Positions 7,053 to 23,147 of a DNA stretch of 43,260 nucleotides are shown piece by piece. Made by a program: the position numbers and the translations under genes. Numbering within the stretch: position 1 is the stretch's first letter; every line of letters begins with the position of its first letter. Origin of the DNA: Candidatus Micrarchaeota archaeon (GTDB lineage: Archaea; Micrarchaeota; Micrarchaeia; Norongarragalinales; SBBD01); the NCBI GenBank assembly GCA_043813365.1, contig JBDRLB010000045.1:1-43260 (forward strand). The letters run 5' to 3'. The notes under the pieces were generated by a model. The model did no database searches, was not told where the DNA came from, and worked only from the letters and a program-made list of their open reading frames with translations.

Positions 7053-8588
7053 CTACTCCCCTAATTTGCGGATTATCCCTTTCGTTGCATCAACTTCAAC
7101 CTCATCCCCGTCCTTGAGCCATTTGGTCGCTATTTTGGTGCCTATGACGCAGGGGATTTTCAGCTCCCTGCTGACTATCGCGGCATGGCAGGTGACCCCG
7201 CCCTCATCCGTCACAATTGCGCCCGCTTTTTTCATTGCCGGCACTATGTTCGGGTTGGTGGCCATTGAAACAAGAATGTCGCCCTGCTGCATTTTCACCA
7301 TATCGGATGCTTTGCCGATAATTTTTACAACGCCCCGAACCAAACCGGGGTACGCAGGAGTGCCCTTCAGTTCCTTGAGGTTCATGTCCGCCTCCTCATG
7401 CACAACCAATTTTGAATATTTTTCCGCTTCCTTCCCAACATAAATACGGAATCCCTTCTCATCGCAAATCGTGACATTGTGCTTTATGCGCTCATTCAGC
7501 AAATCCGCATCAGCAGTCCCTTTTTGGAGCCACTCCCTTATTTCCGAATTGGTTGCATGCCTCACTTGCTTTGGGGAGAGCTCCAGCCGCTTTGCAAATT
7601 CCCGTATAAGCAGATCGGAATTCCGCGAACCAATGAAAACCGAATCCTTCCTGAGCCCCTTGAGATAGCTGAATTTACGCGCAACTTCGCACCAATATTT
7701 TTCTTCGGAAGAAAGGTTGAGATGCTTTTCAACATCGCGCTGCTGCTTTTCAATCTCCTTCCCATGCGCAAGAAGTGCCTCCTTCTTCCTTTTCCCATCG
7801 GTTCCCTGCTTCAATTCGCTCCGGAGCAAATCGCAGAAGAAGCGGCCATCAGCGAGGTCAGGCCCGTCGTAATGGAAGTTGATCCAATCGTATTTCTCAA
7901 CGTGTTTAAGAAGGAAGGAGTTGATAGCGGGGATTTTATGCAAATTGGTGATGATGCCCTCCAGCTCCATGCTGAAAATCAGCGTTGCTTCCTTATCCTC
8001 CTGTATTTCCTCCAAAATTTTGAAGAATTCTATTTCCTGTTGCTGCAGGAATGAAAGTTCAATTGGCGCTCCAAGGGTGCCGAACGCCTCTCCGGCTGAA
8101 ATCCCGGAGTTGCTTGCCTCTGCCCGCTGCTCCAGGAAAGCCATAATCTTGTTGGTGAGCATGAAATGGCCGAAATCCGCCAAATTGACGATGTCGCCCC
8201 AGCCGTTCATCCATTCCCACTTGTCCAGTAGGGAATCGTAAAGGTCGCACAACTGACCATTTTCAATTTTCGCCAAATCCATTCCCATTATTTTTTTTGA
8301 GAGCTCTTGGACTTCCTTTGCTGTTTTTTCCTGCCCATCATAGGTTTCCATCAGGAAGGCGGGTTTTTCCAGCCTTTTCAGCACGATCTTGCCCAGTTCG
8401 TCCCACTCGATGATTTCCCCGTCCGTTCTAGCGCAGTAGTACCGATGCGCATCCTTGCCATCCAATAGGAGGGTATTATTGGGGACGCCGATGAGTTTCT
8501 CCAGCTTATAATGGGAGCCGCGGATATAGCAGCAGGCGTGGACATATAGGGACGAATGGTCTTCCGCGAATTTCTTCCATTTTTTCAT
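7053..8588 (-). CDS. PEP-utilizer mobile (swivel phospho-His) domain protein with divergent N-terminal putative acceptor-binding region; array member 7
   Basis: C-terminal GDILV...TNPNIVPAMKKAGAIVTDEGGVTCHAAIVSRELKIPCVIGT. No ATP-grasp or pyruvate-binding TIM-barrel motifs. Confidence 0.9.
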   Translation of the reverse strand: MKKWKKFAEDHSSLYVHACCYIRGSHYKLEKLIGVPNNTLLLDGKDAHRYYCARTDGEIIEWDELGKIVLKRLEKPAFLMETYDGQEKTAKEVQELSKKIMGMDLAKIENGQLCDLYDSLLDKWEWMNGWGDIVNLADFGHFMLTNKIMAFLEQRAEASNSGISAGEAFGTLGAPIELSFLQQQEIEFFKILEEIQEDKEATLIFSMELEGIITNLHKIPAINSFLLKHVEKYDWINFHYDGPDLADGRFFCDLLRSELKQGTDGKRKKEALLAHGKEIEKQQRDVEKHLNLSSEEKYWCEVARKFSYLKGLRKDSVFIGSRNSDLLIREFAKRLELSPKQVRHATNSEIREWLQKGTADADLLNERIKHNVTICDEKGFRIYVGKEAEKYSKLVVHEEADMNLKELKGTPAYPGLVRGVVKIIGKASDMVKMQQGDILVSMATNPNIVPAMKKAGAIVTDEGGVTCHAAIVSRELKIPCVIGTKIATKWLKDGDEVEVDATKGIIRKLGE

Positions 8589-8613
8589 CAGAATCCTCCT
8601 TGATTTCCAAATA

Positions 8614-8630
8614 GAGTTATTGAAAAATTA
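8614..8630 (-). promoter_or_regulatory. putative promoter motif, copy 2
   Basis: GAGTTATTGAAAAATTA (+ strand) matches 18453..18469 at 15 of 17 positions. Lies upstream of the 8588 start and its GGAGG SD. Confidence 0.5.
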
Positions 8631-8651
8631 CCGGCATATGAGTTAAAATAG

Positions 8652-9461
8652 CTATCTAAGAAGGAGGCTCCTCTTCCTTTGAACCGCAGTTCCGAATCCG
8701 GTGCCGATCCCGTATTTTTTGCGGATTGCCTCATATGCGGCTTCGGTATGCTTGAACTCAGCTGCGACCCTTTCGCCCATGATCTCGTTTTTCCTATCGA
8801 CCCAGATGATTTGGAAGGGAAGCGATTGCATTTTCAGCAGCACGGCAAGCGCAAGGTCCGCAATGAGCATTTCCCTGACGTTCTGCCACTCATCTTCGTA
8901 GCTTTTGACAATAAGTTTGCGCTCCTTCAGGAGATCCAAAAAGAACCCAGAATAGCACGCTGCCGTTTTTTCCCCTCCATAGGGGATGCTGGAATACATC
9001 TTGCCGATTATGCGAGTTGTGCCGCTCGCTTCCATGCTTTTCTTCATCAAAGCGTCTGTTCCTCGGGAGAAGGAGATGATTTTTAACCCGGCTTTCCGGT
9101 CATTTTCAATGGCATTCCCCTTTTTGAAAACATCCGGGAACGCCACCATCTTGACCTCGCCGCGTTCAATCGCGAGCTCGAGGAAATCATAGTAAACTTC
9201 CCGGGCTTTCGTCCCTCTTTTTGGCGATTTTACTTTATTGAGAACGTATTTTGCGATTTTCCTATCTGATGCATTCTGGTTCATCGGTTCCAGCATTTCC
9301 CGTATTTTCCGCTCGTAAATCCCTCCGGTGCCTTTCATTTCCACAAGCGTGCCGTTGAAATCATACAGGGCGGCCTTTTCGAGGGAAGCGAGGCGAGGAT
9401 GGACTTCGACCTTCCTTTTCATCAACTCATTGAATTTTTGCTCAAATTCCATATTTATCAC
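8652..9461 (-). CDS. HAD-superfamily hydrolase, enolase-phosphatase E1 (MtnC)-like
   Basis: Motif I YDFNGTL, motif II IISFSRG, motif III EKTAACY, motif IV SYED. GEVKMVAFPDV resembles the MtnC cap region. The true start may be ATG 9452. Confidence 0.7.
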   Translation of the reverse strand: MINMEFEQKFNELMKRKVEVHPRLASLEKAALYDFNGTLVEMKGTGGIYERKIREMLEPMNQNASDRKIAKYVLNKVKSPKRGTKAREVYYDFLELAIERGEVKMVAFPDVFKKGNAIENDRKAGLKIISFSRGTDALMKKSMEASGTTRIIGKMYSSIPYGGEKTAACYSGFFLDLLKERKLIVKSYEDEWQNVREMLIADLALAVLLKMQSLPFQIIWVDRKNEIMGERVAAEFKHTEAAYEAIRKKYGIGTGFGTAVQRKRSLLLR

Positions 9462-10906
9462 TTTGTCAGCCTCCGGATAACCCCGTGGTTCGCATCCACT
9501 TCGACCAATTCGCCGTCCTTGAATATTTTCGTGGCGTTTTTCACGGCTACCAAACAGGGTACGCCGAGCTCCCTGGAAACGATTGCCGCATGGGAAGTGA
9601 TCCCTCCCTCTTCAGTCACTATCGCTGCCGCGATCCTCATGGCAACAACGTATTCAGGATCGGTTGCAGGTGCGATAAGGATGTCCTTGGGTGAAATTTT
9701 TTGCAATTCGGAAGCGCTGGAAACGATTTTCGCCAAGCCAATAGCCTTCCCGGAACTCGCGCATAAACCATGGATCTCGATGCACTCCTCCCCGATTTCC
9801 TCATTCCCATAAATTTCGCGGCATTTCTCACGGGCCTTTTTTCCTACAAACACTTCGGGGATTTCCTTCTGGAAAATTGTCAGGGAAAAATGCTGCCTTT
9901 CGAGCAAGGAACGTTCAGGCAGGCCATCATTTTCCATGATTTTTTCGATTTCCCAGGGGAACGCATTCTTCAGTGCCTTAAGGGAATACCCCTTCCTTTT
10001 CCCGATTTCCTTCAATAACAGGTCGAAAAAATGCACCGTTTTGATCCAGTATTTCTTCCGGATGTCCTGGAAATGGCCGAATTCGTCCATAATTTCGATG
10101 TAGGAATATGCGGAGGAAGGGATGCCCATTTTTTTCAAGAGCTGGAGCTTCCCCTTTTTAGAGGGCGGGGATAATTGGGGCTTGTTTTTGCTGCCATCAA
10201 TGTCGGCCTCGATCATTTCCCAAAAATCCCCAGCGGAAAGGATTTTCGTTTCGAGCGAATTGTTCTGTATCCAGAACCACTTTTTTGCATGCCGACCGAG
10301 TTTATTCTTGATTTCAATAGGCAATTGGGCGAAGCGCTTTTTCCGCAGTTTCCTAGTAATTGTCTTGGCGATTGCTTCCCTTTCCGCCTGCTCTGTTGCC
10401 AGGAATGATTTATGCGAGGGCATCAGCAATTGGGAGAGCAATCCGGATTTTTTCGCGTCCGCCTTCGATTTCCCGAACACGGCTTCCATCAGGACCATGT
10501 CGCCAACAATCGGGATGCTGTCCACGAAAATGCTGTCACCCCATAATTGGAAATATTCATCAGAAAGCGTGAGGAATAATGAAGTAAGGAAGGCATCCTC
10601 GATTTTGTGCAATTTTACAGCTTCGATTTTCCCATAAGTTGATTCGAGTTTTTTTATGTCCTTTCGGTAAATCTTCCAGATTTTATTCCTATATTTTTTA
10701 CTTTTGAGCCGTTGGAACGCCCTTCTTCCCATAGCGACAAGATTTTCCTTCGGGGAACTCCATCTTCCCTTGCCGTTGTCAATGACGAAGATGGTTTTTC
10801 CATAATTTACGCCCCATTCCCGCTTCATCCGGATGGATCCCTGCGCAAGTGCGTATGTGGACTGCAAAGCCGAATCGTAGAACCATTCCGCCCACTTATC
10901 TTCCAT
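9458..10906 (-). CDS. PEP-utilizer mobile domain protein; array member 6
   Basis: C-terminal TDPEYVVAMRIAAAIVTEEGGITSHAAIVSRELGVPC. Internal FQDIRK motif. Confidence 0.9.
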   Translation of the reverse strand: MEDKWAEWFYDSALQSTYALAQGSIRMKREWGVNYGKTIFVIDNGKGRWSSPKENLVAMGRRAFQRLKSKKYRNKIWKIYRKDIKKLESTYGKIEAVKLHKIEDAFLTSLFLTLSDEYFQLWGDSIFVDSIPIVGDMVLMEAVFGKSKADAKKSGLLSQLLMPSHKSFLATEQAEREAIAKTITRKLRKKRFAQLPIEIKNKLGRHAKKWFWIQNNSLETKILSAGDFWEMIEADIDGSKNKPQLSPPSKKGKLQLLKKMGIPSSAYSYIEIMDEFGHFQDIRKKYWIKTVHFFDLLLKEIGKRKGYSLKALKNAFPWEIEKIMENDGLPERSLLERQHFSLTIFQKEIPEVFVGKKAREKCREIYGNEEIGEECIEIHGLCASSGKAIGLAKIVSSASELQKISPKDILIAPATDPEYVVAMRIAAAIVTEEGGITSHAAIVSRELGVPCLVAVKNATKIFKDGELVEVDANHGVIRRLTK

Positions 10907-10908
10907 GT

Positions 10909-12438
10909 TCAGCCCTCGAGTTTGTTCACTTCGCCGTGGTTTGCCTTAACCTCCAGCAAATCGCCGTCCTTGAAAACGCGTGTTGCAATGCGGGTGCCTA
11001 TGATGCATGGGATTCCCAGTTCGCGGGAGACTATTGCTGCATGCGAGGTTATTCCCCCTTCATCAGTAACAATAGCGCACGCCTTTTTCATTGCCGGAAC
11101 CATTTCAGGCCGGGTTGCGTGTGCAATCAGAACTTCCCCTTCCTCCACTTTTGGAATGTCTGCGGATAAGAGCACCAATTTCGCCTTTCCAACAGCATAC
11201 CCCAATGAGGCGCAGGTTCCCCTGACGCTGGCAACTGCTGATTTGCCGGAATGCCCGAAACCCTTCAATAAGCGCTTTTCCCGGGCATGCGCATCCTTTC
11301 CGCTGTAAATCTTTACATTGTCATAACCGAAAATCAGCAGGCAGTTGGTGCGGCGTATTTTCAATTCGGATAAAAATTTCCTGTCTGCCAAGTACTGCTC
11401 TTTTATTTCAGTTGGGAGGGCGTAAAGAAGCAGGTCCTTTTCAATCCCGTATCTTTTTTCTAACTCGTTCGCAAGCAGATGTGACCAGTAAACGGCCTTA
11501 AGCATGCTGGTTTTGCGGTAATCCTGGTAATATGCGAGCTTGCTAACCAAGTCCAGCAATGCTGTTAATTTTGGAGGAAGCCTTAGTTCTTCCTGCACCT
11601 TATCCCTTGCGAGCAATTTCCCCTTTTCCTTCATTTTGAATTCGTCAAGGTGCTTTTTTGGGTCGGTGCAGGCCTTGAATTTCTCCCTCAGCATGTTGAT
11701 GAAATAGTTGATATTCAGATAGGGCGTATATGCGTAGTTGTTGTTTATCCAATGGAATTTCTCAATGTGGAGCAATAGCCGTTTTTCAATGGTCGGATAT
11801 TTCTTCAGGGAATCCCTTATTTCATGGATAAGCCCCCGGAATGCCTTCTTCAGCATTTCTTCCATTCCTATCAAGGCCATTATCTCCAGCAGGTCCTTCT
11901 CCTCGGAAATGTGGAAGAGCTCCCCGGAAATTGGGGTGAGATCCACGAAATATTGCGAGTATTTGTTCTCCAGCCCTTTTTCCTTAAGGAACGCGCCCAG
12001 CTTCTCCCTGATTTTATGCTCAAGGTAGAAGTAGGAGGGTTCCATCAGGTAGCTTGGGACATAGCAGGCGGAATACGCGTCATTGAGTTCTTTTTCGAGG
12101 GCGATCAAATCAGTTTCGGAAAGCATCGGCAGGGGCCTGAACCGGGTCTTCTTGATCAGTTTTTCCAGTTTTTTGAACTCATTGGTGAAATCCTTAAGCG
12201 ATTTTCCAAATAATGCGGGATTTTTTAGGATACGCTTAACGATGATTTCACCTGCCTTCAACGTTTCTTTCCTCCGTATGTAGTAGCGCGCGTTCACGCC
12301 CTTGATTGGCACAACCTGCTGCTTGACACATGCCTTCCAATAGCGTTCCATCCTCCTTCCCATGGGTTCGCATGCAGGGTACATTAGAAGCGGCGTGAGC
12401 TCCGCAAAATATTCGTAGAACAACGGTTTCTGCATCAT
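10909..12438 (-). CDS. PEP-utilizer mobile domain protein; array member 5
   Basis: C-terminal TRPEMVPAMKKACAIVTDEGGITSHAAIVSRELGIPC. Internal YQDYRK motif. Confidence 0.9.
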   Translation of the reverse strand: MMQKPLFYEYFAELTPLLMYPACEPMGRRMERYWKACVKQQVVPIKGVNARYYIRRKETLKAGEIIVKRILKNPALFGKSLKDFTNEFKKLEKLIKKTRFRPLPMLSETDLIALEKELNDAYSACYVPSYLMEPSYFYLEHKIREKLGAFLKEKGLENKYSQYFVDLTPISGELFHISEEKDLLEIMALIGMEEMLKKAFRGLIHEIRDSLKKYPTIEKRLLLHIEKFHWINNNYAYTPYLNINYFINMLREKFKACTDPKKHLDEFKMKEKGKLLARDKVQEELRLPPKLTALLDLVSKLAYYQDYRKTSMLKAVYWSHLLANELEKRYGIEKDLLLYALPTEIKEQYLADRKFLSELKIRRTNCLLIFGYDNVKIYSGKDAHAREKRLLKGFGHSGKSAVASVRGTCASLGYAVGKAKLVLLSADIPKVEEGEVLIAHATRPEMVPAMKKACAIVTDEGGITSHAAIVSRELGIPCIIGTRIATRVFKDGDLLEVKANHGEVNKLEG

Positions 12439-13943
12439 TTCACCTTCCTAACCAACCCATGGTTTGCATTCACTTCGACGAAATCTCCGTCCTTTAGGAT
12501 TTTTGTGGCGATCTTCGTGCCGATTATGCAAGGGATCCCAAGCTCCCGGGACACAACTGCCGCATGCGATGTAATCCCCCCTTCGTCCGTAACCACTGCA
12601 GCCGCTTTTTTCATGGCAGGGACGAGTTCCGGGCGCGTCATGCTGCTGACCAGGATGTCGCCGTGCTTCATTTTAACGATATCTTTTGTGTTATTGACAA
12701 TACGCACGTACCCTTCCACCCTTCCGATTGACGCGCATTGGCCCCGCACGTCCTCGCAGGCGCTTTTTTCTCCTGCAAAAAGCATTTTTTCCAGTATTAC
12801 AGCATCCTTTCCAGTAAAAACATCCTCGAACCCTTTCCCGATGATCATAACGCTGAATTTCCTGCGCTCGTGCATCAATTTCTTGTCAAGCTTGCCTTTT
12901 CTGAGATATGCAATAAGCTCGGAAGGTGTCGAATAGACCACTTCGTAAAAAGTTGCACCCAGCCTCCTGGCGAATTCATTTAGGAAGCTGCATGCATAAT
13001 GGTCTCCGATGAGATTCTCCTTCTTTCTTACATCCTGCCACCAAGCAAAGCGTTCAATTATCTCCAAAATCAGCTTCAGCCTGCCATTAATTTCCAATCG
13101 TTTTATGAGCCCCTTTTTCCCTTTTTTTGCTTCAATAGGGAATTTTTCCATCTTCCGGATTTCCTTCAAGGGATCAACTCCCTCCTTCAGCAATTCGGAA
13201 ACCTCATTCGCGAAATCCCCGGCCTTAAGATCGCGTGCGATCAGGTAACTATTCCGGATCCAATGGTACTTTTTTGCATGGGCATCAAGATCGGCCCTTA
13301 TTGCGGGATCCGATAATAGCTGCTTTGGCGTTATTTTCTTTTGAAAATTATTTTTCTTGATTTTATGGACGATTTTCAGCAGTCCCTTGCGTTCGTCATT
13401 CGTAAATGATACGTTCACCGGAGCGGTCAGGGCCGGGAAATATTTTGTGAATTCCTTCTCCGCCCCCCGCCGTTTCAGGAGCGCTATCAGCAAATGCCTT
13501 GCAAGGCTTTCCGAATGGATGCCAATGGCATCCGCAATTATTGGGATGCTCCATTCCCTGATGTATATGCCGATGAATCGATTGTAGGCGCGAATAAGCT
13601 CGGAATCGGGAAGCCCGGCAAGGTCGATTGAATCCAGCCTCCTGCATTCCCTTTCAAATTCACGGAGGTCCTTTTTCCATAAACGGATCAGATTCGAAAG
13701 GTATACCGGGTCCTTTTCAAGCTCCGAAATAAGGCGTTCGGTTATTTTCCTCAAATCCTCCTGGTCATAAATCCATTTTGCGAAATTGTTCCGGTGTATG
13801 CCGATTATTGATTTGTAGCCATAACCGACACGCTCCTGCAGGGACTTGGCAGTAGCTATTCCCGGCAGCCAGATTATTTGAAGTGATGATTCGCAAGCCT
13901 GGATATAATTCTTCCTTTCCTTGAAAACCGAAAAATCCCTCAT
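12435..13943 (-). CDS. PEP-utilizer mobile domain protein; array member 4
   Basis: C-terminal TRPELVPAMKKAAAVVTDEGGITSHAAVVSRELGIPC. Internal WQDVRK motif. 4-nt overlaps on both sides. Confidence 0.9.
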   Translation of the reverse strand: MRDFSVFKERKNYIQACESSLQIIWLPGIATAKSLQERVGYGYKSIIGIHRNNFAKWIYDQEDLRKITERLISELEKDPVYLSNLIRLWKKDLREFERECRRLDSIDLAGLPDSELIRAYNRFIGIYIREWSIPIIADAIGIHSESLARHLLIALLKRRGAEKEFTKYFPALTAPVNVSFTNDERKGLLKIVHKIKKNNFQKKITPKQLLSDPAIRADLDAHAKKYHWIRNSYLIARDLKAGDFANEVSELLKEGVDPLKEIRKMEKFPIEAKKGKKGLIKRLEINGRLKLILEIIERFAWWQDVRKKENLIGDHYACSFLNEFARRLGATFYEVVYSTPSELIAYLRKGKLDKKLMHERRKFSVMIIGKGFEDVFTGKDAVILEKMLFAGEKSACEDVRGQCASIGRVEGYVRIVNNTKDIVKMKHGDILVSSMTRPELVPAMKKAAAVVTDEGGITSHAAVVSRELGIPCIIGTKIATKILKDGDFVEVNANHGLVRKVK

Positions 13944-15454
13944 TTTTCCACCCTACGGACGGAGCCGTGGATTGCATTCACATCGACAACATCCCCATCC
14001 TTGAATATTTTTGTCGCATTGCCGGTGCCGACAATGCATGGAATCCGGAGTTCCCTGGAAACGATCGCAGCATGGCAGGTGATCCCGCCCTCATCCGTGA
14101 CAATCGCTCCCGCCCGTTTCATCCCTACAACGTAATCCGGGGAGGTCATAGGTGCGACCAGCACGTCCCCATGATTCACCTTCATGATATGCATTGCGCT
14201 CATCACGATTTTCACGCGGCCCGTATGCCTCCCGATGGATGCACAGGTGCCGTAGATTTTCAGCCCCTTCTTCTCATCCGGATTTTCCTGGATGTTCCTT
14301 TTTATGAATTCCCTTGATTCGGGCTTATTCAAAAACCGGGTCCTGCCCCTGCTGTCCCAGATGCATACGCTCAGGCCATACCTTTGTTTCAATACGGGAT
14401 TTGGAATCCCCTTTCCTTCAATAAGCGCTTCACGTATTTCCCCGATAGTCATAAACCTTGAAAGCACAACCGTGGTATCAAGGCGTTTTGCGATTTCCTC
14501 GAGAAGCGGGATCAGCAGATAATGCGACTTGGTGAAGCCTTCCTTCTTGAAGTCAATGATGAAGGTCGCGAGCCTGATGTAATCGAAAAGTGATTGGAGC
14601 GACTTTGGCAGGCGGTACCTCAGGATGGCTTCGTCTTGCCTATTTTTCAGTTCGGAAGGGCGCCTTTTAAGGCCATTGAGCATGGCAGCGCAATTCCTTT
14701 TTAAAACGTAGTTCATCAATGCCGAAGCGAAATGGCCGATGTCCCAAATCTGGACGCCATAATCATATGGCAGCCAGCAGTATTTTTTTTCATGAATTTG
14801 CAAATCCCCCCATATTTTGCTGGCTTTCAGAGCGTTGATGATCCTTCCCTTGTTTTTTCCCCTGAAGATTGCCATCATTTTGGGTTTTTTCTGGACCATC
14901 GCGCCCAACCGGAGCAGGTCCTGCTCTTCCTGTGCAATGAAGGACTGCTCGAGAGGCGTTGAGAGAAGGGCTATTATCTCGTTGGCATTCTCCCTGCCAA
15001 CGCATTTGATTGTTTCCCTTTTGATTTCCAAGGTTACCCGGTCTTTTGTTGCCATGGGTACGGGCTCCCCGTATATCGATGCCTCCTCGTATAAAGCAGC
15101 GTAATGGCGGTATTTTTCCCATAGCTCCGTGTTGTCAAGTTTTGACAGGTCCATTGAATTTATTTTCTCCGAGTAACGTAGCAGCTTGTTGAGGCGCGGG
15201 AGGAATTTTCCATAGAGGATCTTCAGTTGGCCCGGATCCCTCAGTATCCGTGAAGAGACATGGGAGAAAAGCGAATTCATCTTCCTCTTGTCCGCATACC
15301 AGGTCATTACGCCGTCCGTGTAGGTCACGAAGAAACTGCCGAATGACTTGCCAAACCAGACGGGGATGGGTATTGCGTATATTTTTCCAAGGATTTCCAC
15401 GTACGGGGAAAGGTAGGCGTGCGTTTTCCTCTGCGCATATACCCATTGGATCAT
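13940..15454 (-). CDS. PEP-utilizer mobile domain protein; array member 3
   Basis: C-terminal TSPDYVVGMKRAGAIVTDEGGITCHAAIVSRELRIPC. Internal YGEP, WLPYDYG and DFKKEGFTKSH. Confidence 0.9.
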   Translation of the reverse strand: MIQWVYAQRKTHAYLSPYVEILGKIYAIPIPVWFGKSFGSFFVTYTDGVMTWYADKRKMNSLFSHVSSRILRDPGQLKILYGKFLPRLNKLLRYSEKINSMDLSKLDNTELWEKYRHYAALYEEASIYGEPVPMATKDRVTLEIKRETIKCVGRENANEIIALLSTPLEQSFIAQEEQDLLRLGAMVQKKPKMMAIFRGKNKGRIINALKASKIWGDLQIHEKKYCWLPYDYGVQIWDIGHFASALMNYVLKRNCAAMLNGLKRRPSELKNRQDEAILRYRLPKSLQSLFDYIRLATFIIDFKKEGFTKSHYLLIPLLEEIAKRLDTTVVLSRFMTIGEIREALIEGKGIPNPVLKQRYGLSVCIWDSRGRTRFLNKPESREFIKRNIQENPDEKKGLKIYGTCASIGRHTGRVKIVMSAMHIMKVNHGDVLVAPMTSPDYVVGMKRAGAIVTDEGGITCHAAIVSRELRIPCIVGTGNATKIFKDGDVVDVNAIHGSVRRVEK

Positions 15455-16944
15455 TTTTCCACCTTCCTAACAATGCCATGGGACGCCTTCACTTCCAGCA
15501 GGTCGCCGTCCTTGAATGCGGATGTTGCTATGCGTGTCCCGACAACGCAGGGGATGTTGAATTCCCTTGCGACAATAGCTGCATGGCATGTGATGCCGCC
15601 GTCATTTGTTACGATTGCGGCCGCATTTTTCATCCCGTGCACGAAATCCGGCGTTGTCATTATTGTGACCAAAATCTCCCCCTTTTTGAGCTTTGGAAGA
15701 TCAGATGCTGAAAGGATGACCCGCGCCTTTCCTCGAACAGTTCCGGCGCATGCGCATGTGCCCTTAAGTTCGGTTGCAACCGCTCTATCTTTTCCGAGGA
15801 GGCCCACTTTTTTGAGGGATGTGTCGGCTTTTTCAGCTGCGATCATTTCCACTTTTCCATTGGTTGAATGAAGCACGCGCAGCATTTTCGGGTTCGGGCT
15901 TATTTTCTCCCCATTCAATGCAGATATAATTTCCGGCGGCGTTGAGGAATATGCCTGTTCCATGCTCCAATCAAGCCTTTTTGCTGCCTCGTGGAGCAGG
16001 TTCCGGTAGGCAAAATGGCTTTTTGTATGGCATTCCTTCTTGAAATCCATGAGGAAACCCGTTATCCGAAGGACATTCAGGTAGGAGGATGTTTTTACAT
16101 CAAGCCCGAGGGTTTTTTCCATATTCCTTTGTTTCTCCCCTATCCGGCCGTAATATTCTGAAATTTCACGGAGCCTTTTATCCGGATCAAAGCCCTGCTC
16201 CATCAGATTCCTTGCCGTATCCGTGAAATATGATGCATCCCAAACAGCCCCTCCGTAATCGAAAGGGACCCAAAAGTATTCTGCTTCATGATCCTTGAAA
16301 AGTGCGGCATATTTCCCGTATGCCTTTCCGGATAAAAATTGCTTTTCCATGCCATTTTTCCGGATGAGGCGGATAACTTTCAGCAGGGATTCCTCTTCCC
16401 TTGTTGCAAACGGTTTTTCAGTAGGGGCAGTGAGCAACGTAAATACGGCCCCGAATTCGCCTGATTTTCCTTTTTCCACGAGTACTTCCTTTATCCCTGC
16501 TTCTGCTAAAGAGGCAAAATGGTCTTTGACAGCGAATGCGAAGGGCTCCCCGTAAACATATGCTTCATCGTATTCTTTCCAATATTCCCTAATGAGTGAT
16601 GCGAGCCCGGCATTGCCCGTAGAATTCAATTTTGAAGGGTTTAGGCGGCCGTTGAAATCAAGCAGCCTCTTGATCCTCTTTTTGAAATTGGCGCAAATCC
16701 CTTCCGCAAGTGCAGGGTTTTTCTCCACCGCATTGCCGCATACGAGCTCCACTTTCCGGATTAGGTCCTCACGAAAGTACGCCTTGAAGCTGCCTTTTTC
16801 CCCAAAAACAGCAATAATTTCGCCATAGCTGGAGCCAGCAGCTTCCTGCATTTTTGCTGTATAGTCGATGCAGATGTTGTAAAGCATATGCAGATGGAAG
16901 CCTTCCTTCCGTTCCTGTACTAATGCCCATTCCATGAAGTTCAC
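15451..16944 (-). CDS. PEP-utilizer mobile domain protein; array member 2
   Basis: C-terminal TTPDFVHGMKNAAAIVTNDGGITCHAAIVAREFNIPC. Internal YGEP, WVPFDYG and DFKKECHTKSH. Confidence 0.9.
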   Translation of the reverse strand: MNFMEWALVQERKEGFHLHMLYNICIDYTAKMQEAAGSSYGEIIAVFGEKGSFKAYFREDLIRKVELVCGNAVEKNPALAEGICANFKKRIKRLLDFNGRLNPSKLNSTGNAGLASLIREYWKEYDEAYVYGEPFAFAVKDHFASLAEAGIKEVLVEKGKSGEFGAVFTLLTAPTEKPFATREEESLLKVIRLIRKNGMEKQFLSGKAYGKYAALFKDHEAEYFWVPFDYGGAVWDASYFTDTARNLMEQGFDPDKRLREISEYYGRIGEKQRNMEKTLGLDVKTSSYLNVLRITGFLMDFKKECHTKSHFAYRNLLHEAAKRLDWSMEQAYSSTPPEIISALNGEKISPNPKMLRVLHSTNGKVEMIAAEKADTSLKKVGLLGKDRAVATELKGTCACAGTVRGKARVILSASDLPKLKKGEILVTIMTTPDFVHGMKNAAAIVTNDGGITCHAAIVAREFNIPCVVGTRIATSAFKDGDLLEVKASHGIVRKVEK

Positions 16945-18413
16945 TTGATTATCCCGACAATGCCTTTGGTGGCGTTCAGCTCCACCATCATGCCGTCCTT
17001 CAGAACATCCGTCGCGATCTTTGTTCCTACGATGCAGGGGATGCCCAGTTCCCTGCTTACAATCGCAGCGTGGCAGGTTAGGCCGCCCGTGTTAGTGATT
17101 ATCGCGGCTGCTTTTTTCATTGCCGGCACTATGTCGGGGTTGGTGGCGGGAGCGACGAGGATGTCGCCCTGATTCATTTTGTGCATGTCTTTCGGGGAAA
17201 GTATCAGTTTTACTGTTCCCTTCGCAAATCCGGGGCACGCGCATTGGCCCCTTAGTTCTTTTGATTCGATGATTTTTTCCTCAAGTACGTCCTCCCTCAT
17301 TATCCGCTGCGCTTCCTTTCCAACATATACTTCGGTAGAGTCATCCTTGCTTATTGCAACCGAGAATTTGAAGCGTTCGTTGTAAAGCGAAGGGTTGGTG
17401 GGGCGGTTTTTCAGCGCTTCTTTTATTTCATTTGGCAGCATAAACCTTACTTGCTTGGGGGTCAAATGGAGCCTCTTTGCAATTTCGGCGATCAATGACC
17501 GCATCTCGAAATAACTCCTGAAAAGGATGTCCTTCCGGTCTGCCTTGAAGAATATCAGGTCGGATGCGATGTCAAAGAGTTTGATTTCGGATTTGGAAAG
17601 TTCAAGGAGGGATATTGTGCTTTTTCTTTTTATTTCATCCTCCTTTTCCTTGTTTTTTATTTTTTCGAGCTCTTTTTTTGCATCTGTTTTCTGCTTCAGC
17701 ATGCTTTCCAGCACGGATTCGAAATGCTCCTTCTTCCAAGGGTCGTTTTCATATGTGCACGGGAGCCATCCATATTTTTTTGTATGTGCGATAAGGAGCT
17801 TTTGAATCTGAGGGGAATGGATGAACTTTGGGCTCTTGATTAGTGCGGCAATTTCCAACAAATCCATGTCCTGCTGCTTCCCAAGGGTGAACTTCTTTGG
17901 ATTGGTGAGCGTTGTGAACAATATGCTAAGCTGGTCCTCGGTTGCATCTGGAAGGTGCCTCCTGATTATTCCCCTCAGCTTGTCCGAAAGGGCGCTGCTG
18001 AGATCGAGTGCGGGTGCGATCCAAGCGTAGCCGCGCATTTCCTTGCACCGCTTGCAGTAATCAGAATAATAAGTCCAAAGTTGTGCATTGGATTTGGAGG
18101 CTAGGGTTATGGACGATATTTCCCCGGTCAATTCCAGCATCCTTTTGCCTAGCCGGTAAGTCTCCTTGATTGCATGCTCGACAAAATCAGGATCGGATGC
18201 TACCTTTTTGCCCAGTATCTCAGCTACTCGTTGGGTGTCGCCCTCAATCTCATAAAAGCCCCACGCGTCCCCCTTGAAGGGGTACATCAGCCCCTTATAG
18301 CTTGCGCCGAGCGCTTTCTGCATGCTGCTGTTCTTCCCGCAGCCGGATTCGAAAAGGAAAATCGGGAACAGGCTCGCGTCGTTCCTGATGTCTACCTTCA
18401 CCCATTTTTCCAC
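16941..18413 (-). CDS. PEP-utilizer mobile domain protein; array member 1
   Basis: C-terminal TNPDIVPAMKKAAAIITNTGGLTCHAAIVSRELGIPC. GTG start with a GAGGGG SD. Confidence 0.9.
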   Translation of the reverse strand: MEKWVKVDIRNDASLFPIFLFESGCGKNSSMQKALGASYKGLMYPFKGDAWGFYEIEGDTQRVAEILGKKVASDPDFVEHAIKETYRLGKRMLELTGEISSITLASKSNAQLWTYYSDYCKRCKEMRGYAWIAPALDLSSALSDKLRGIIRRHLPDATEDQLSILFTTLTNPKKFTLGKQQDMDLLEIAALIKSPKFIHSPQIQKLLIAHTKKYGWLPCTYENDPWKKEHFESVLESMLKQKTDAKKELEKIKNKEKEDEIKRKSTISLLELSKSEIKLFDIASDLIFFKADRKDILFRSYFEMRSLIAEIAKRLHLTPKQVRFMLPNEIKEALKNRPTNPSLYNERFKFSVAISKDDSTEVYVGKEAQRIMREDVLEEKIIESKELRGQCACPGFAKGTVKLILSPKDMHKMNQGDILVAPATNPDIVPAMKKAAAIITNTGGLTCHAAIVSRELGIPCIVGTKIATDVLKDGMMVELNATKGIVGIIK

Positions 18414-18452
18414 GCGTACCCCTCAAAATATGTTAAATAGTAATATTGCAGG

Positions 18453-18487
18453 GAGTTATTAAATAATTATACCCCCGATATAGGGGT
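18453..18487 (-). promoter_or_regulatory. putative promoter (copy 1) with adjacent inverted repeat ACCCC-N7-GGGGT
   Basis: AT-rich GAGTTATTAAATAATTA at 18453..18469 (TTTAATAA on the minus strand). Inverted repeat at 18471..18487, directly upstream in the direction of transcription. Confidence 0.5.
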
Positions 18488-18488
18488 T

Positions 18489-19136
18489 TTAGAGCTCCTC
18501 CCTGAGCGACGCCTTTATTATGGCGCTTTCGGCCTTCCTTAAATGCTCGCGGAAGGTGCTTTCGTCCACACCTTCCTTTTTTGCAACCTCTTCCAGCGAT
18601 TTCTTCCTTGGGAAATCATAGTACCCTTCGGAAGCCGCTTTTTTAATTGCTGAGAGCTGCTTTCCTGAAAGCCTGCCGAAAACATTGGAGATGAACAGGT
18701 CGATGGGCTGCCCATGAATCCCAAGGACCCGCACTTTCACGCCCTTGATTTTTGAAATATGCTTCGCCAAATCCTTCAGGTGCTTCTTGTCCCAGCTCGC
18801 AATGGTCCAGAATTCGTATCCTCTACGGCCGATTATGGGCTTGATGAACAGCACTTCGGAGTTCATCACCTGCGCATTGAACGCATCCAGACTCTCATGC
18901 TGGTAGAAAACCTGGTTGCCCTCGACGGAACGCACCTTGCTTCCGAAATGCCCCACAATCAGTTTCAAGTATATTTCCTTGTCGGGCCCCTGAACCAGCA
19001 CTACCTTGTTCACGAACGCCTTCCCATCCTTCTTGAAAACGTTCAGGTAGTAGGAGGCAATAGTCACATCATAGTCAGCGCTGCCTGCAACTATGACGGA
19101 TTTTTCACGCTTCAACTTTAACTCTGCTACCCACAT
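18489..19136 (-). CDS. HTH_10 (bacterio-opsin activator-type C-terminal HTH) transcriptional regulator
   Basis: C-terminal LSGKQLSAIKKAASEGYYDFPRKKSLEEVAKKEGVDESTFREHLRKAE, the characteristic GYY.PR...ST..EHLRKAE signature. Confidence 0.92.
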   Translation of the reverse strand: MWVAELKLKREKSVIVAGSADYDVTIASYYLNVFKKDGKAFVNKVVLVQGPDKEIYLKLIVGHFGSKVRSVEGNQVFYQHESLDAFNAQVMNSEVLFIKPIIGRRGYEFWTIASWDKKHLKDLAKHISKIKGVKVRVLGIHGQPIDLFISNVFGRLSGKQLSAIKKAASEGYYDFPRKKSLEEVAKKEGVDESTFREHLRKAESAIIKASLREEL

Positions 19137-19145
19137 AAGGACACA

Positions 19146-19739
19146 CTAGAATTGGTAACCCCGTTCGTGGAGCGCCTTTTCGCATTGCTCAAGCGACTGG
19201 AAATGGATTCCGCCAAGGCCCGCCTTTTTCGCGCCATCGAGATTTTCAGGCTGGTCATCAACCATCACGGCATTTTGCGGGGAAACCCAGATGCGGCGGC
19301 AGATTTCCTTGTAGGCCTGCGCATCAGGCTTCTTCATGCCGATGATGCTGGAGGCGAACTCGAAATCAAAAAGGGAATTCAGGCCCATCCTCCTCGAGAA
19401 TGGCTCGTGCGCCTCCCAGTTGTTGTTCGTGAATAGCACTACTTTGTTGTTTTTCTTCAGCCGGTTTATGAGCTGGCGCATTCCTCTCCGTTCATGCAGA
19501 ACTCCCTTGTAATAATCATCTGCCGTTCCAGCAGAAACAACTCCGACGAAATCGAGAATCACCGCCTTTCGGAAAAAGAGGAGCTTGAAATAGGGGTAGA
19601 TGAAGAGTGAAACAAGGTAGGAAATGAGGAGCCAGAGAGCGATTGTGTTCAAATTATCGAAGGGCGCCTCGAAAGTAAACAATGCCGCCACGAAAATGAT
19701 TGCAGTCATCACTCCCGTCCAGTAGTCGCTTCGGAACAT
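19146..19739 (-). CDS. HAD-superfamily phosphatase (IA-type) with two N-terminal TM helices
   Basis: Motifs ILDFVGV, LFTNN, GMKKPD, MVDD..ENL.GA...G. The first ~55 aa are hydrophobic. Confidence 0.85.
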   Translation of the reverse strand: MFRSDYWTGVMTAIIFVAALFTFEAPFDNLNTIALWLLISYLVSLFIYPYFKLLFFRKAVILDFVGVVSAGTADDYYKGVLHERRGMRQLINRLKKNNKVVLFTNNNWEAHEPFSRRMGLNSLFDFEFASSIIGMKKPDAQAYKEICRRIWVSPQNAVMVDDQPENLDGAKKAGLGGIHFQSLEQCEKALHERGYQF

Positions 19740-19818
19740 ATGGGAAAAGGATGGTTTTTTGTGAATAAAAAGATTGGGATTGGAGGAATGGGTGGGCGAA
19801 GGCGGATATGTGAATAGG

Positions 19819-20781
19819 CTAGATTGTGGTAATCGGCCGGCTTTGGACTATGTAGATTTTACCCGCTTCCACCGCGTACTCGATGTCCTGCGGCTTTCCG
19901 TAGTGCTTTTCGATGGAAATGCAAGTTTTTGCGAGGGAAATGATGGATTTGCCATCGAGTTTCTGCTTTGAGCGATTTTCAGCAGGCACAGGAACCTCTT
20001 CTGTTCCCACTTGTTTTCCCTTGATCACTTTCATTATCATTTTTTCCTGCTCATTGACGGAAATGTCGCTCAGGGAAAGGTCTTTCTTTCCAACAACATA
20101 ATTGTCCGGCGTGACTAGGCCGCCAACAACCGCTTCCCCTAATCCGAAAGCGGCCTCAATCACCATCTGGTTAGCATCCTTAGTGACGGGATGCACAGTG
20201 AAGACCACACCGGCAACTTCCGAATTGATCATTTTCTGCACCACAACAGCAACTGATACTTTTTGCGAGGAAAGCTTTTTCTCTATGCGGTAAAAAATTG
20301 CGCGCGGCGTGAAGAGGGAGGACCAGCACATCTTCACCGTGTCCAGCAGATTCGCCCTCTGGATGTTCATGTAGGATTCAAGTTCGCCAGCCCAGCTGGC
20401 TGCTGCGGCGTCCTCGGCAGTTGCTGATGAGCGCACTGCAACAAATTTTGCATCCAGGGAATCGAATTGGGAAAGGATGGCGTTTTCAACATCGGTGCTA
20501 ATCTTCCCTTTGGCAATCGAGGCGCGGATTTCCTTCGATGCGGCGTCAACGGTTTCGGTTTTATTGATGTCAACTGTTTTGAGCATTTTTTCTATTTTTC
20601 CGGAGAGGTTGTTTTCATTTATGAATGTTTCGAATGAATCAACCAGGACGACGAATCCCGGCGGGACAGGAATGCCCGCATTGAACATCTCCCCCAGCTG
20701 AGCTCCCTTGCCGCCTGCGATTGAAACGGATGACTTGCTCAATTTTTGGAACGGCAGCACGTAATTTGGCATTTCATTCAC
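19819..20781 (-). CDS. stand-alone ATP-grasp/nucleotide-binding (PPDK_N) domain of the PEP synthase family
   Basis: Motifs GGKGAQLGEM, VAVRSSATAED, FGLGEAVVGG.VTPD, PQDIEY. Ends at IVQSRPITTI, the domain boundary. No His domain or TIM barrel. Confidence 0.93.
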   Translation of the reverse strand: MNEMPNYVLPFQKLSKSSVSIAGGKGAQLGEMFNAGIPVPPGFVVLVDSFETFINENNLSGKIEKMLKTVDINKTETVDAASKEIRASIAKGKISTDVENAILSQFDSLDAKFVAVRSSATAEDAAAASWAGELESYMNIQRANLLDTVKMCWSSLFTPRAIFYRIEKKLSSQKVSVAVVVQKMINSEVAGVVFTVHPVTKDANQMVIEAAFGLGEAVVGGLVTPDNYVVGKKDLSLSDISVNEQEKMIMKVIKGKQVGTEEVPVPAENRSKQKLDGKSIISLAKTCISIEKHYGKPQDIEYAVEAGKIYIVQSRPITTI

Positions 20782-20792: not shown

Positions 20793-21725
20793 TCAGGTCT
20801 CGAGGGCAATTTTCCCCTTGGAATACGAGAGCTTCAATTTGAAATCCTCCAGCAGCTTTTTCTGGATTTCCTCATCGGGCAGTTTCTGCTCCTTAATATC
20901 CAGAGCGGCCTTCAAGAGCTCATCGATGTGCTGGAAGTTCTTGTACACATAATCGCCCGCCTTCTGGTAGGAGACTATCTCCTCATCGAATTTCTTTAGG
21001 GCCGTTTGCTGCTGCTGCAAAGTATGCTCCAGGCGCTTTATGGACTTCGGTTCCTGTGAAACGATCTCGTTTTTTTCCTCATCCATCTGCTGCGAAACCG
21101 CATAGTAATATTCGTCAATTGCCTCGCAGATTGTCGGGAACTCCTTTTTCTTGAATGCATCGAATTTTGGGTTTGGGATGGATGAAAAACCGGCAATGCG
21201 TTCGTTGTCATAATAGATTGCGGGCGCTTTTTTCGGTTTTTCTGCAAGCCGGTTCTGGTTCGGGAGTGCAATGTAGGTTTCCAGCTTCTTGATGGCGCGC
21301 TTTCCGGAAATGTCCGATTTGTAGGGCTGCAAAATCGTGTAATCGGCTTTTGTAAAAATGAGGTTGCCCTTTGCGAACATTTCGAAAACAAGGTGGAACT
21401 CCTCCTCTTTCTGCAATGTAAGGACGAGCAGGCGGTCCTCGTTTTCCTGCTTCACTTCGGTTATTTTCGCGTTCTCGAGGTGCTTCCGGAGGAGCATCGT
21501 GTAATTCGTGGGAACATCGGGGGATTCCTCGATGTATTTGGAGAGGTTTGCGCGCAGCCCCAGCTCGACAATGAGGTTGTATTCCTTGTCGCCACGCACC
21601 TTGAACCGGAAAACTTTGGGCCGCAATTCGAAAATCTTGTTCAGGAAGCCGCCAACGAGAACCTGGAGCTCCTCCGCCACGTAATAGTAATCGAGGTTGC
21701 TCATTTTCTGGAGTGCAAGCGGCAT
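20793..21725 (-). CDS. truncated Rqc2/RqcH (NFACT-N plus first coiled coil)
   Basis: MSNLD...EL, P.NY.MLLRKHL, DRLLVL, LVFEMF.KGNLI and EAIDEYY, followed by a coiled coil. Ends near 310 aa. Start moved to ATG 21725. Confidence 0.85.
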   Translation of the reverse strand: MPLALQKMSNLDYYYVAEELQVLVGGFLNKIFELRPKVFRFKVRGDKEYNLIVELGLRANLSKYIEESPDVPTNYTMLLRKHLENAKITEVKQENEDRLLVLTLQKEEEFHLVFEMFAKGNLIFTKADYTILQPYKSDISGKRAIKKLETYIALPNQNRLAEKPKKAPAIYYDNERIAGFSSIPNPKFDAFKKKEFPTICEAIDEYYYAVSQQMDEEKNEIVSQEPKSIKRLEHTLQQQQTALKKFDEEIVSYQKAGDYVYKNFQHIDELLKAALDIKEQKLPDEEIQKKLLEDFKLKLSYSKGKIALET

Positions 21726-21840
21726 GTCATCACGCTGATAAATACCAAAGGCAGGCGAAATATAAACCGAGCAAATATAAACCGGCATTGCTTATTAATC
21801 AGGTGCCTTTCACATGCAAAATCGGGCACAGATCGCAACG

Positions 21841-21894: not shown

Positions 21895-22410
21895 ATGGAA
21901 GATCACGGCGCAAAAGGTCTTGTGGAGCTGTTCATACTGAACGAGTGCAGCCACAAGCCGCTTTCGGGCAAGGACCTGATGCAGAAAGCATCGGAATTAT
22001 CCAAGGGCAAATGGGTCCCATCCGCAGGGAGCGTTTATCCCGCGCTTGCAAAAATGGAAAAGGGAGGGTTGGTAAAATCAAGCCTCCGGAAAAAGGGGAA
22101 GGGAAGGCGGGAAATTGCGTACGAACTAACGGCAAAGGGGAAGCATTCGTTCGGCGCGTGCAAGGATAAAATTGAGGAGATGGGCTCGGTGATGGGGGCC
22201 GTCAACCCGATATTCCTGCGCATATTGCAGGACCTTGATGATGAGGAAACGGAAGAGGCGCGCGTGTTTTGGATGAAAATCATTGAATTCCGGAAGCAGC
22301 TGCTTGCAGAGCCCAGGCAGGAAGTGAGGCACAGGCGCCTGGTTAGGATGTTCAGGCTGTTCCAGAAGGAACTTGATGATGCGAAGAAGGAATTAGGGCT
22401 GAGAAAATGA
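21895..22410 (+). CDS. PadR-family transcriptional regulator
   Basis: WVPSAGSVYPALAKMEKGGLV...YELTAKG winged-helix signature. Confidence 0.92.
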   Translation: MEDHGAKGLVELFILNECSHKPLSGKDLMQKASELSKGKWVPSAGSVYPALAKMEKGGLVKSSLRKKGKGRREIAYELTAKGKHSFGACKDKIEEMGSVMGAVNPIFLRILQDLDDEETEEARVFWMKIIEFRKQLLAEPRQEVRHRRLVRMFRLFQKELDDAKKELGLRK

Positions 22411-23147
22411 CTTCCCGTAAAATAGTATTGAAGCTGGACAATGTATGCAAAACCTACGGGGAGGGCGATGTGGCGGTAAAGGCGCTCTGTCATATAAACA
22501 TCGAGCTGAAAGAAGGCGAGGTTGTCGCCATAATGGGGCCCTCGGGAAGCGGGAAAAGCACGATGCTGCACATACTGGGGCTGCTCGACAGGCCGACGGA
22601 AGGGAAATTGTATTTGGACGGCATAGAAACCTCGACATTGACGGATGACGAGCTTGCGGCAATAAGGGGGAAGAAAATAGGCTTCGTGTTCCAGTTCTTC
22701 TTCCTGATTCCCTCATTGACGGTGCTAGAAAACGTGGAGCTTCCGATGATGCTCCTTGGGCTGGATGGGATTGACCGCACAAGAAGGGCGAAGGAGCTCC
22801 TGAAAAAGGTGGGGCTGGAGGACAGGATGCACCATCTGCCTTCCGAACTTTCAGGAGGGCAGCGGCAGAGGACCGCGATTGCAAGGGCGCTTGCCAACGA
22901 CCCCTCAATAATACTCGCGGACGAACCGACTGGGAACCTCGATACAAAAACCGGGAGCGAGATCATGCAGTTATTCGATGATTTGCATAAAAAGGACGGC
23001 CGCACGATCATTTTCGTGACGCACGACCCGGATTTGGTGCAGCATTCGGAGAAGGTCATCCTGCTCCGGGACGGGAAAGTGGAAAAGATCGTAGGGGATG
23101 GGAAAACCCTGCTAACTCATATGGGAAATATTCGTCTTAAAAAATAG
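22407..23147 (+). CDS. ABC transporter ATP-binding protein (LolD/MacB type)
   Basis: Walker A GPSGSGKST, IGFVFQ, LSGGQRQR, LADEPTGNLD and VTHD. Confidence 0.96.
   Translation: MTSRKIVLKLDNVCKTYGEGDVAVKALCHINIELKEGEVVAIMGPSGSGKSTMLHILGLLDRPTEGKLYLDGIETSTLTDDELAAIRGKKIGFVFQFFFLIPSLTVLENVELPMMLLGLDGIDRTRRAKELLKKVGLEDRMHHLPSELSGGQRQRTAIARALANDPSIILADEPTGNLDTKTGSEIMQLFDDLHKKDGRTIIFVTHDPDLVQHSEKVILLRDGKVEKIVGDGKTLLTHMGNIRLKK

Follow-up and report, generated by a model that had tools for sequence, protein, structure and literature searches.

How does an archaeal cell use seven neighboring proteins that carry the phosphorylatable histidine of a dikinase, but none of the ATP-grasp machinery that would charge it? 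The question is raised by a stretch of 43,260 nucleotides (nt), called the window when its full length is meant and belonging to the genome G000, in which seven paralogous genes for proteins of 482-511 amino acids (aa) lie on the minus strand between positions 7053 and 18413, with a single free ATP-grasp gene upstream of them at 19819-20781. Our sequence comparisons make it fairly probable that this locus encodes a split small-molecule dikinase of the RPH type, in which one ATP-grasp protein is the hub and many paralogs are the spokes. The 320-aa ATP-grasp protein would bind ATP, and the swivel domain of a paralog would dock on it transiently, so that the swivel histidine takes the β-phosphate (ATP being converted to AMP plus Pi). 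The swivel would then swing back to the paralog's own substrate domain of ~380 aa and phosphorylate the small molecule bound there. The single ATP-grasp gene would serve all 13 paralogs of the genome, of which seven are in the window locus. The paralogs would differ in substrate, and every gene or gene run would be under an HTH_10 regulator of its own. HAD-like partners that lack one aspartate of the phosphatase motif (Asp+2) would act on the phosphorylated products or take part in the phosphoryl flow. Trapping of diffusible compounds, detoxification and biosynthesis are candidate physiological roles.

The features of the locus are given below in order of transcription, followed by a full-length phosphoenolpyruvate (PEP) synthase from elsewhere in the window. 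Support values are those of a FastTree tree discussed further on; G126 is a genome of another genus of the same family, and L007 is its array.

20793-21788, minus strand: NFACT_N gene, at the head of the locus in transcription order
19819-20781, minus strand: free ATP-grasp subunit, 320 aa, PPDK_N domain only (PF01326, E 4e-99), HpeI/PpsB-like, the proposed 'charger'
19146-19739, minus strand: membrane-anchored HAD-like protein, 197 aa, motif I DFVGV (Pfam Hydrolase, E 5e-17; HAD_2)
18489-19136, minus strand: HTH_10 regulator, 215 aa (PF04967, E 9e-17), directly upstream of the array
16941-18413, minus strand: paralog 7, 490 aa, predicted RPH-type substrate domain plus swivel histidine (PF00391); in a clade with G126 genes, support 1.0
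15451-16944, minus strand: paralog 6, 497 aa (PF00391, E 7e-25); pairs with G126 L007:13773, support 1.0
13940-15454, minus strand: paralog 5, 504 aa (PF00391, E 9e-26); sister to the pair of paralog 6 and its G126 counterpart, support 0.99
12435-13943, minus strand: paralog 4, 502 aa (PF00391, E 3e-25); pairs with G126 L007:10714, support 1.0
10909-12438, minus strand: paralog 3, 509 aa (PF00391, E 7e-25); pairs with G126 L007:9182, support 1.0
9458-10906, minus strand: paralog 2, 482 aa (PF00391, E 1e-25); weak pairing with G126 L007:15261, support 0.26
8652-9461, minus strand: gene inside the array for a 269-aa protein, HAD-fold-like by ESM Atlas leads, motif I DFNGT
7053-8588, minus strand: paralog 1, 511 aa (PF00391, E 5e-25); in a clade with genes of G132, G119, G142, G126 and G020, support 1.0
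39045-41492, minus strand: full-length PEP synthase PpsA, 815 aa, with PPDK_N and PEP-utilizers domains in one 827-aa frame; context, and a possible alternative donor

The listing of open reading frames (ORFs) bears out the original prediction that the seven paralogs are co-oriented, have an intact swivel histidine and lack ATP-grasp motifs. PF00391 (PEP-utilizers) is the only Pfam match in all seven, where it covers the last ~72 residues (E 2e-26 to 7e-25), and the motif GG[IVL]T[CS]HAA[IV]V[SA]RE lies within 50 residues of every C-terminus. Neither PF01326 (PPDK_N) nor the ATP-grasp string RSSAxxED is found in any of the seven. The tight run of six paralogs (9458-18413) that had been predicted is also confirmed, with four 4-nt ATGA/GTGA overlaps and one 2-nt gap at the junctions between paralogs. 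A further 4-nt overlap ties the 269-aa gene at 8652-9461 to this run, and the seventh paralog (7053-8588) begins 63 nt past that gene.

The part of each paralog in front of the swivel belongs to no Pfam or NCBIfam family. The NCBIfam models for PEP synthase, RPH, PigC/RedH and PRK08296 score the paralogs far under their cut-offs, mostly through the swivel part only. An AlphaFold2 model of paralog 7 (16941-18413), for which a family alignment of 32 members was supplied, has a mean pLDDT of 92.1 and a pTM of 0.88. In a Foldseek search of the PDB, six RPH-Lm entries are the top matches to this model (E 1.9e-15 to 1.1e-12), and all others match the swivel only. Positions 104-503 of a full-length family profile align with RPH 453-866 (E 9e-35), and a profile of the N-terminal domain alone (N-domain) finds nothing among PDB sequences at E <=0.01. 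In RPH, the Arg666/Glu667/Lys670 motif is reported as critical for the second phosphotransfer (PMC4844700). The invariant lysine of a conserved '[DQ]x[RK]K' stretch in the paralogs aligns with RPH Lys670 in a hidden Markov model (HMM) alignment, the register of which may slip by 1-2 positions. By this modeling, the N-terminal ~380 aa are a helical, RPH-type substrate-binding domain with the rifampin-binding-domain fold.

This fold agrees with the earlier expectation that the paralogs have no nucleotide-binding fold of their own, which is ruled out by the RPH rifampin-binding fold together with the missing Pfam match and the absence of RSSAxxED from all seven. A Walker-A-like string does occur in one of the seven, at residue 393 of 10909-12438, but it lies in the linker and we take it to be there by chance. 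The two parts of the array proteins differ widely in conservation: identity is 16-26% among the substrate domains (mean 20.7), whereas among the swivels it is 49-65% (mean 55.6). Conserved swivels joined to diverged substrate domains fit a model with one common docking partner and different substrates.

As had been predicted, the gene at 19819-20781 encodes the ATP-grasp domain alone, PPDK_N spanning residues 20-319 of 320. The protein matches the crystal structure of HpeI (9GOJ, E 7e-48) and the isolated ATP-grasp domain of RPH (5hv6, E 5e-62), as well as archaeal PEP synthases. The GGKGA, RSSATAED and QSRPIT motifs are kept in its complete orthologs, the copy at locus L008 being divergent and truncated at its C-terminal end. 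Fused family members with three domains share 50-55% identity with it in their ATP-grasp domains, compared to ~42-43% for the PpsA of its own genome. By these comparisons it is an intact protein and a member of the dikinase family rather than a fragment of PpsA.

A predicted complex of the ATP-grasp protein and paralog 7, with ATP and Mg, reached a score of 0.47 (0.47, 0.47 and 0.46 in the individual runs), whereas the best of three controls scored 0.00. The runs share >=97% of their contacts, and the pLDDT of the partner is >=86, with alignments made for this analysis. The pass mark that this score exceeds was reached by 58/80 solved complexes and by 2/110 mismatched pairs; passing scores of <=0.60 were seen for only 7/80 solved complexes, as well as for both of the mismatches that passed. 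One caveat is that a fused homolog, RPH, has a solved structure, and the pass may therefore mirror likeness rather than binding. The prediction therefore lends weak support to docking of the paralog on the ATP-grasp protein, and the docking foreseen in the original prediction is upheld to that degree.

The number of acceptors that the ATP-grasp protein would face is larger than the locus suggests. The window's genome (1.34 Mb in 78 contigs, 88.6% complete) has 16 PF00391 matches, which are PpsA, 13 ORFs recognized by the N-domain HMM and two swivel proteins of other kinds. Seven of the 13 paralog ORFs are in the window locus and six on five other contigs; together they total 18,684 nt, or 1.4% of the genome, and all 13 keep the aligned swivel histidine, one copy within the variant GGLLSHAA. 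PF01326, by comparison, matches only PpsA and the free ATP-grasp protein at 19819-20781. The 1:7 layout originally proposed is thus correct for the locus and too low for the genome. The accompanying claim, that one ATP-grasp protein charges all acceptors in trans, is favored by a sole free PPDK_N against 13 acceptors, and by its position beside paralogs in most genomes; we infer such charging rather than observe it.

The two swivel proteins of other kinds lie elsewhere in G000. One, at 2416-2880 of locus L004 (contig C47), is a stand-alone protein of 154 aa (PF00391, E 1e-27) with the motif GGITSHPS; the end of its ORF is overlapped by a 401-aa ORF (2843-4048) that matches nothing in Pfam, with an EamA transporter gene alongside. 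It could be a free phospho-carrier, or could belong to a reversed or split arrangement. The other, at 656-2128 of locus L005 (contig C53), has 490 aa and a weaker swivel (PF00391, E 2e-18; GGVLSHTAI), and its N-terminal ~410 aa are not matched by the paralog N-domain HMM. It may represent a further, more distant type of acceptor.

The paralogs are also accompanied by regulators. The presence of an HTH_10 gene in the locus had been noted earlier and is confirmed, and of 16 homologous HTH_10 genes from 10 loci, 15 immediately precede a paralog or paralog run on the same strand. G000 itself has three regulators of the 18489-19136 type, and each is the first gene upstream of a paralog. A sigma-4-like C-terminal helix-turn-helix is seen in the regulator model (pLDDT 87), whose N-terminal part of ~145 residues has weak fold matches only. 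The pairing of regulator and paralog suggests that each module is separately controlled, possibly by its own ligand. At locus L001 of G000 (contig C32), the usual HTH_10 position before the paralog at 1321-2853 is occupied by a 236-aa ORF (604-1314) that ends 7 nt before the paralog, has no Pfam match and was not picked up by the regulator search.

The closest known counterparts are split dikinases in which HpeI is the ATP-grasp protein and HpeH combines an RPH-like substrate domain with a swivel, CreHI and the phenylphosphate synthase PpsAB being homologs (PMC12167813). HpeH relates to RPH in the same way as the window paralogs do (PMC12167813). The window shares with these systems a separate ATP-grasp subunit (the 9GOJ match above) encoded by an adjoining gene, and a second subunit that combines an RPH-type substrate domain with a C-terminal swivel histidine in GGxT[SC]HAA. 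The subunits differ in size, since the catalytic histidine of HpeH is residue 581 (PMC12167813) and the window subunits have ~490-510 aa; the PRK08296 'hypothetical protein' models (568-633 positions) match the window paralogs in the swivel part only. Another difference is one of number: the characterized systems are described as one H/I pair (PMC12167813), whereas here one ATP-grasp gene stands against 13 acceptors. The pairing of each unit with an HTH_10 regulator is likewise a feature of the window that is unlike HpeHI, CreHI and PpsAB. According to the same report, no stable HpeH-HpeI complex forms (PMC12167813), and this makes a shared donor mechanistically plausible.

The characterized split dikinases have a phenolic substrate and an aromatic-catabolic context, whereas the window comes from a reduced-genome archaeon with no such genes nearby: carboxylase or ring-cleavage genes were not found among the neighbors, which are HTH_10, HAD-like, NFACT_N, PadR and ABC exporter genes. 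The aromatic-catabolic context is a trait of the characterized systems, not of the architecture. Searches of the open-access literature found no paper on this expansion, nor on a split dikinase with a one-to-many layout, for DPANN archaea or Micrarchaeota. The statement in the original prediction that no characterized system has this layout stands for the one-to-many form, but not for the split itself, which is known from PpsAB, CreHI and HpeHI (PMC12167813). New beside the architecture described there are the one-to-many gene layout, an expansion of this size and age, the regulator cassettes and the unusual HAD partner, none of which the literature searches found described.

Comparison with the two better-known fused enzymes places the window proteins in neither family. 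RPH is one three-domain polypeptide, whereas the window distributes these domains over separate genes and has the acceptor in several copies, with ~19% identity to RPH. Against the RPH model RIF_Ptrans_rph (NF041857), the paralogs score 49-73 bits and the ATP-grasp gene 271 bits, below the cut-off of 999, and nothing points to rifamycins as the substrates. The resemblance to the genome's own PEP synthase is closer, at ~42-43% identity for the ATP-grasp domain and 59-60% for the swivel, and the chemistry from ATP to phosphohistidine is presumed to be alike. However, the window paralogs have no C-terminal PEP/pyruvate-binding domain, and the PEP synthase model PRK06464 (cut-off 598 bits) gives 113-137 bits for the paralogs, at positions ~350-461, and 342 bits for the free ATP-grasp protein.

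If paralogs and the free ATP-grasp protein work together, they should be found together. The N-domain profile (E <=1e-5) matched 22/151 sampled genomes of the phylum, and without G000 the matches fall in 12/18 genomes of the same order compared to 9/132 others. Ten genomes have from 4 to at least 12 matches, where the numbers are matches rather than gene counts and 12 is a lower bound. In eight of these ten expanded relatives (>=4 matches), exactly one PPDK_N in a 232-366-aa frame is present besides PpsA, and it adjoins paralogs in 7/8. A short-frame PPDK_N occurs in none of the five same-order genomes that have no paralogs, and in G115, where only one paralog matches, a free ATP-grasp gene adjoins that paralog.

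Close relatives share part of this gene order. Within the window's genus, NFACT, ATP-grasp, HAD and HTH_10 make up a conserved core together with the 7053 ortholog; in the window, the six-gene block and the 269-aa gene stand between the regulator and 7053. At L010 (G132) and L013 (G142), the ortholog of paralog 1 follows ATP-grasp, HAD and HTH_10 and is the sole paralog there. At L014 (G119) it lies downstream of ATP-grasp and HTH_10, and no HAD homolog was found at that locus.

Several observations weigh against a single dedicated donor for all paralogs. Two of the ten expanded relatives, G126 and G149, have no free ATP-grasp gene by the Pfam model or by protein search, and G126 (90% complete, 8 contigs, at least 12 N-domain matches) nevertheless keeps a syntenic six-gene array, with no free ATP-grasp gene at the locus or elsewhere. 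The co-occurrence expected from the original prediction therefore holds for eight of the ten relatives, while the arrays of G126 and G149, for which no free PPDK_N was found, count in part against that prediction. Among the five genomes with 1-2 paralog matches, a clear free ATP-grasp gene is found only in G115; G137 and G144 lack such a gene, and the matches in G070 and G087 are weak and fall in ~550-aa frames. G085 has its free ATP-grasp gene on a contig without any paralog. As G000 is 88.6% complete, it may hold a second free ATP-grasp gene. The score of the predicted complex is weak, and a Pfam scan of the neighbors found no catabolic or biosynthetic genes in the locus that would hint at a pathway. 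Finally, the paralog swivels are as similar to the PpsA swivel (59-60%) as to those of fused members (59-65%), so PpsA could charge them too.

The G126 array (L007, contig C7) runs in the order HTH_10, five paralogs, a homolog of the 269-aa gene, HTH_10 and one further paralog. Two of its ORFs, 15261-17027 and 10714-12549, reach 588 and 611 aa through in-frame upstream sequence that overlaps their neighbors. These are probably mis-set start codons rather than longer proteins.

The observations in G126 and G149 bring forward the full-length PEP synthase as the main donor, acting in trans or from histidine to histidine, with the free ATP-grasp protein serving its neighbor only or being auxiliary. 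In those two genomes, with 6 to at least 12 paralog matches, PpsA is the only PPDK_N; in G000 PpsA is encoded in the same window (39045-41492), and its swivel shares 59% identity with the paralog 7 swivel. We nevertheless regard PpsA as an unlikely main donor. The free ATP-grasp protein is closer to fused family members (50-55%) than to PpsA (42%), and it is found only where paralogs exist, beside them in seven of eight genomes. Moreover, G085 has paralogs and a free ATP-grasp gene but no PpsA-length PPDK_N frame, and in the established domain order of PEP synthase the ATP-grasp domain is tethered to its own swivel.

The original prediction counted two HAD phosphatases in the locus, and this holds in part. 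The protein at 19146-19739 has a Pfam HAD match and, as read from its translation, a hydrophobic N-terminus. The 8652-9461 protein has no Pfam or NCBIfam match, and its assignment to the HAD fold comes from ESM Atlas leads alone (feature score 0.94, structure TM 0.53-0.61); a homolog holds the same position in the G126 array (E 1e-53). Motif I of HAD phosphatases is DxDx[TV], with Asp+2 as the general acid/base. Both proteins lack this residue, the motifs being DFVGV in 19146-19739 and DFNGT in 8652-9461, which leaves the label of phosphatase unproven. The 19146-19739 protein keeps the nucleophilic Asp as well as Thr in motif II, Lys in motif III and DD in motif IV, and DFVGV is invariant in 3/3 orthologs. 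A database representative, P0042 (721 aa), is a paralog with a C-terminal fused HAD of the same type (DFSGV), to which the HAD domain of 19146-19739 is 31% identical (E 2e-11). This fusion ties the HAD type without Asp+2 functionally to the dikinase. Judged by their sequences, the HAD-like partners may hydrolyze the products, accept phosphate or have another role.

Loss of Asp+2 should slow hydrolysis of an aspartyl phosphate, and a HAD protein that keeps its nucleophilic Asp without Asp+2 in all three orthologs, and is fused to a paralog in P0042, would suit a relay. The paralogs would then be regulatory or relay phosphohistidine proteins that pass phosphate to a protein acceptor, such as the Asp of the HAD-like partner, or modulate an enzyme as VadK does. 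VadK is described as a histidine kinase that derives from PPDK, phosphorylates itself and has a regulatory role (PMC13400623). Such a relay appears distinctly unlikely to us, as each paralog has a whole substrate domain with the predicted RPH ligand-binding fold and a lysine at the RPH Lys670 position, and as the 16-26% identity among these domains fits differing small ligands. There is also only one such HAD in the locus for 13 paralogs in the genome.

The paralogs might instead need no ATP, moving phosphate between phosphorylated metabolites and acceptors by way of the swivel histidine. HpeH alone is reported to do such phosphotransfer, shuttling phosphate from 4-phosphoacetophenone to acetovanillone (PMC12167813), and two of the ten expanded relatives have arrays and no free ATP-grasp gene. 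We find this very unlikely in view of the free ATP-grasp gene, which is conserved, intact and adjoining in most relatives, and in view of fused relatives with an ATP-grasp of their own. The latter are seen in the wider family: the N-domain profile recovered 5198 proteins at E <=1e-3, and 1087 at E <=1e-30, from 1.84 billion cluster representatives. Among the 146 top proteins listed, 108 have 450-560 aa and 18 exceed 900 aa. P0061, P0120 and P0133 (database representatives of 814-830 aa) join ATP-grasp, substrate and swivel domains in one chain. Source names are available for four homologs, three being Candidatus Micrarchaeota archaeon and one Candidatus Norongarragalinales archaeon, and the label 'Micrarchaeota-like' is based on these four names.

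Longer chains also occur among these proteins. P0030, P0031 and P0036 (1027-2309 aa) contain 2-4 complete paralog modules, P0030 having four swivels and one PPDK_N. They are either real multi-module fusions or artefacts of gene calling or assembly.

The age of the paralog set can be read from the FastTree tree of 61 members, which comprise 36 locus ORFs (>=400 aa, N-domain HMM E <1e-10, so that shorter or weaker ORFs are omitted) and 25 database proteins. The array genes 12435, 10909 and 15451 form one-to-one pairs with genes of G126 at support 1.0. Overall, paralogs 1, 3, 4, 6 and 7 each have a G126 partner or share a clade with genes of that genome at support 1.0, whereas paralog 5 is a sister at 0.99 and paralog 2 reaches only 0.26. 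Counterparts in another genus for at least five of the seven array genes indicate that the set is old and that its members have been maintained separately, which argues for distinct functions. One shortened paralog of 352 aa (contig C44 of G000, 25113-26114; 10405-11463 in locus L003) has an in-frame TAG in the upstream homologous frame, and may be a pseudogene or have a mis-set start. Although this copy would suit decaying or redundant recent duplicates without separate functions, that explanation is contradicted, and barely credible, given that all seven array genes are intact with the catalytic histidine, that five of them match G126 genes at support 1.0 and that their substrate domains are only 16-26% identical.

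Within the split-dikinase model, the role of the panel could be narrowed further. A possible, if doubtful, proposal is an ATP-driven capture or detoxification panel, in which one charger and at least 13 regulated phosphohistidine subunits would phosphorylate different membrane-permeant compounds from a host or the environment, trapping or inactivating them, with the HAD lacking Asp+2 as an integral phosphoryl-handling step. In the bacterial phosphotransferase system (PTS), Enzyme I and HPr serve many sugar-specific Enzymes II. If the proposal is true, the panel would be the kinase counterpart of this logic of one general and many specific components, and a major strategy of metabolite acquisition or defense in this Micrarchaeota-like order. 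The parallel is one of analogy only: the window's donor would be ATP by way of the ATP-grasp protein rather than PEP, each specificity subunit has its own swivel, and no transport component is evident.

Whichever role applies, the RPH-type split dikinases known so far are three bacterial phenol-type systems, each described as one pair. Here, a 1.34-Mb archaeal genome devotes 1.4% of its DNA to 13 diverged specificity subunits with one donor gene, and related genomes of the same order are alike. The N-domain family, with its 5198 representatives, is a large enzyme family without functional annotation. If one ATP-grasp protein does charge many carriers, this would be a modular kinase design not described in the literature found. 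The substrates of the 13 paralogs would bear on the ways in which small molecules are acquired or neutralized by DPANN archaea that have few biosynthetic pathways. From their sequences, the paralogs appear to be soluble proteins of ~500 aa that should be readily tractable in vitro.

Divergent from the dikinase locus, the stretch 21895-29014 on the plus strand encodes a PadR regulator, an ABC ATPase, a CARDB/NPCBM_assoc surface-type protein and two MacB_PCD/FtsX permeases, followed by a DrrA-like ABC ATPase and an ABC-2 permease. Two export-type systems thus lie beside the RPH-like kinase panel; they would fit a detoxification theme, and their position may be a coincidence. PADLOC models for anti-phage defense matched none of the five locus proteins. 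Public sequencing runs list only small DNA shares (0.08-0.17) and no RNA run, and are uninformative on expression or habitat.

Two further observations concern translation genes in the window. At 38498-38605 (plus strand), Rfam calls a tRNA of 108 nt that covers all 71 model positions at 43.4 bits, whereas ARAGORN reports none anywhere in the window; an archaeal tRNA with an intron may be the explanation. The ORF of a class I lysyl-tRNA synthetase (29387-31213, minus strand) overlaps the upstream nucleotidyl-transferase/hexapeptide ORF (31060-32277, minus strand) by ~150 nt as listed, and the true start of the synthetase is probably later than the listed one.

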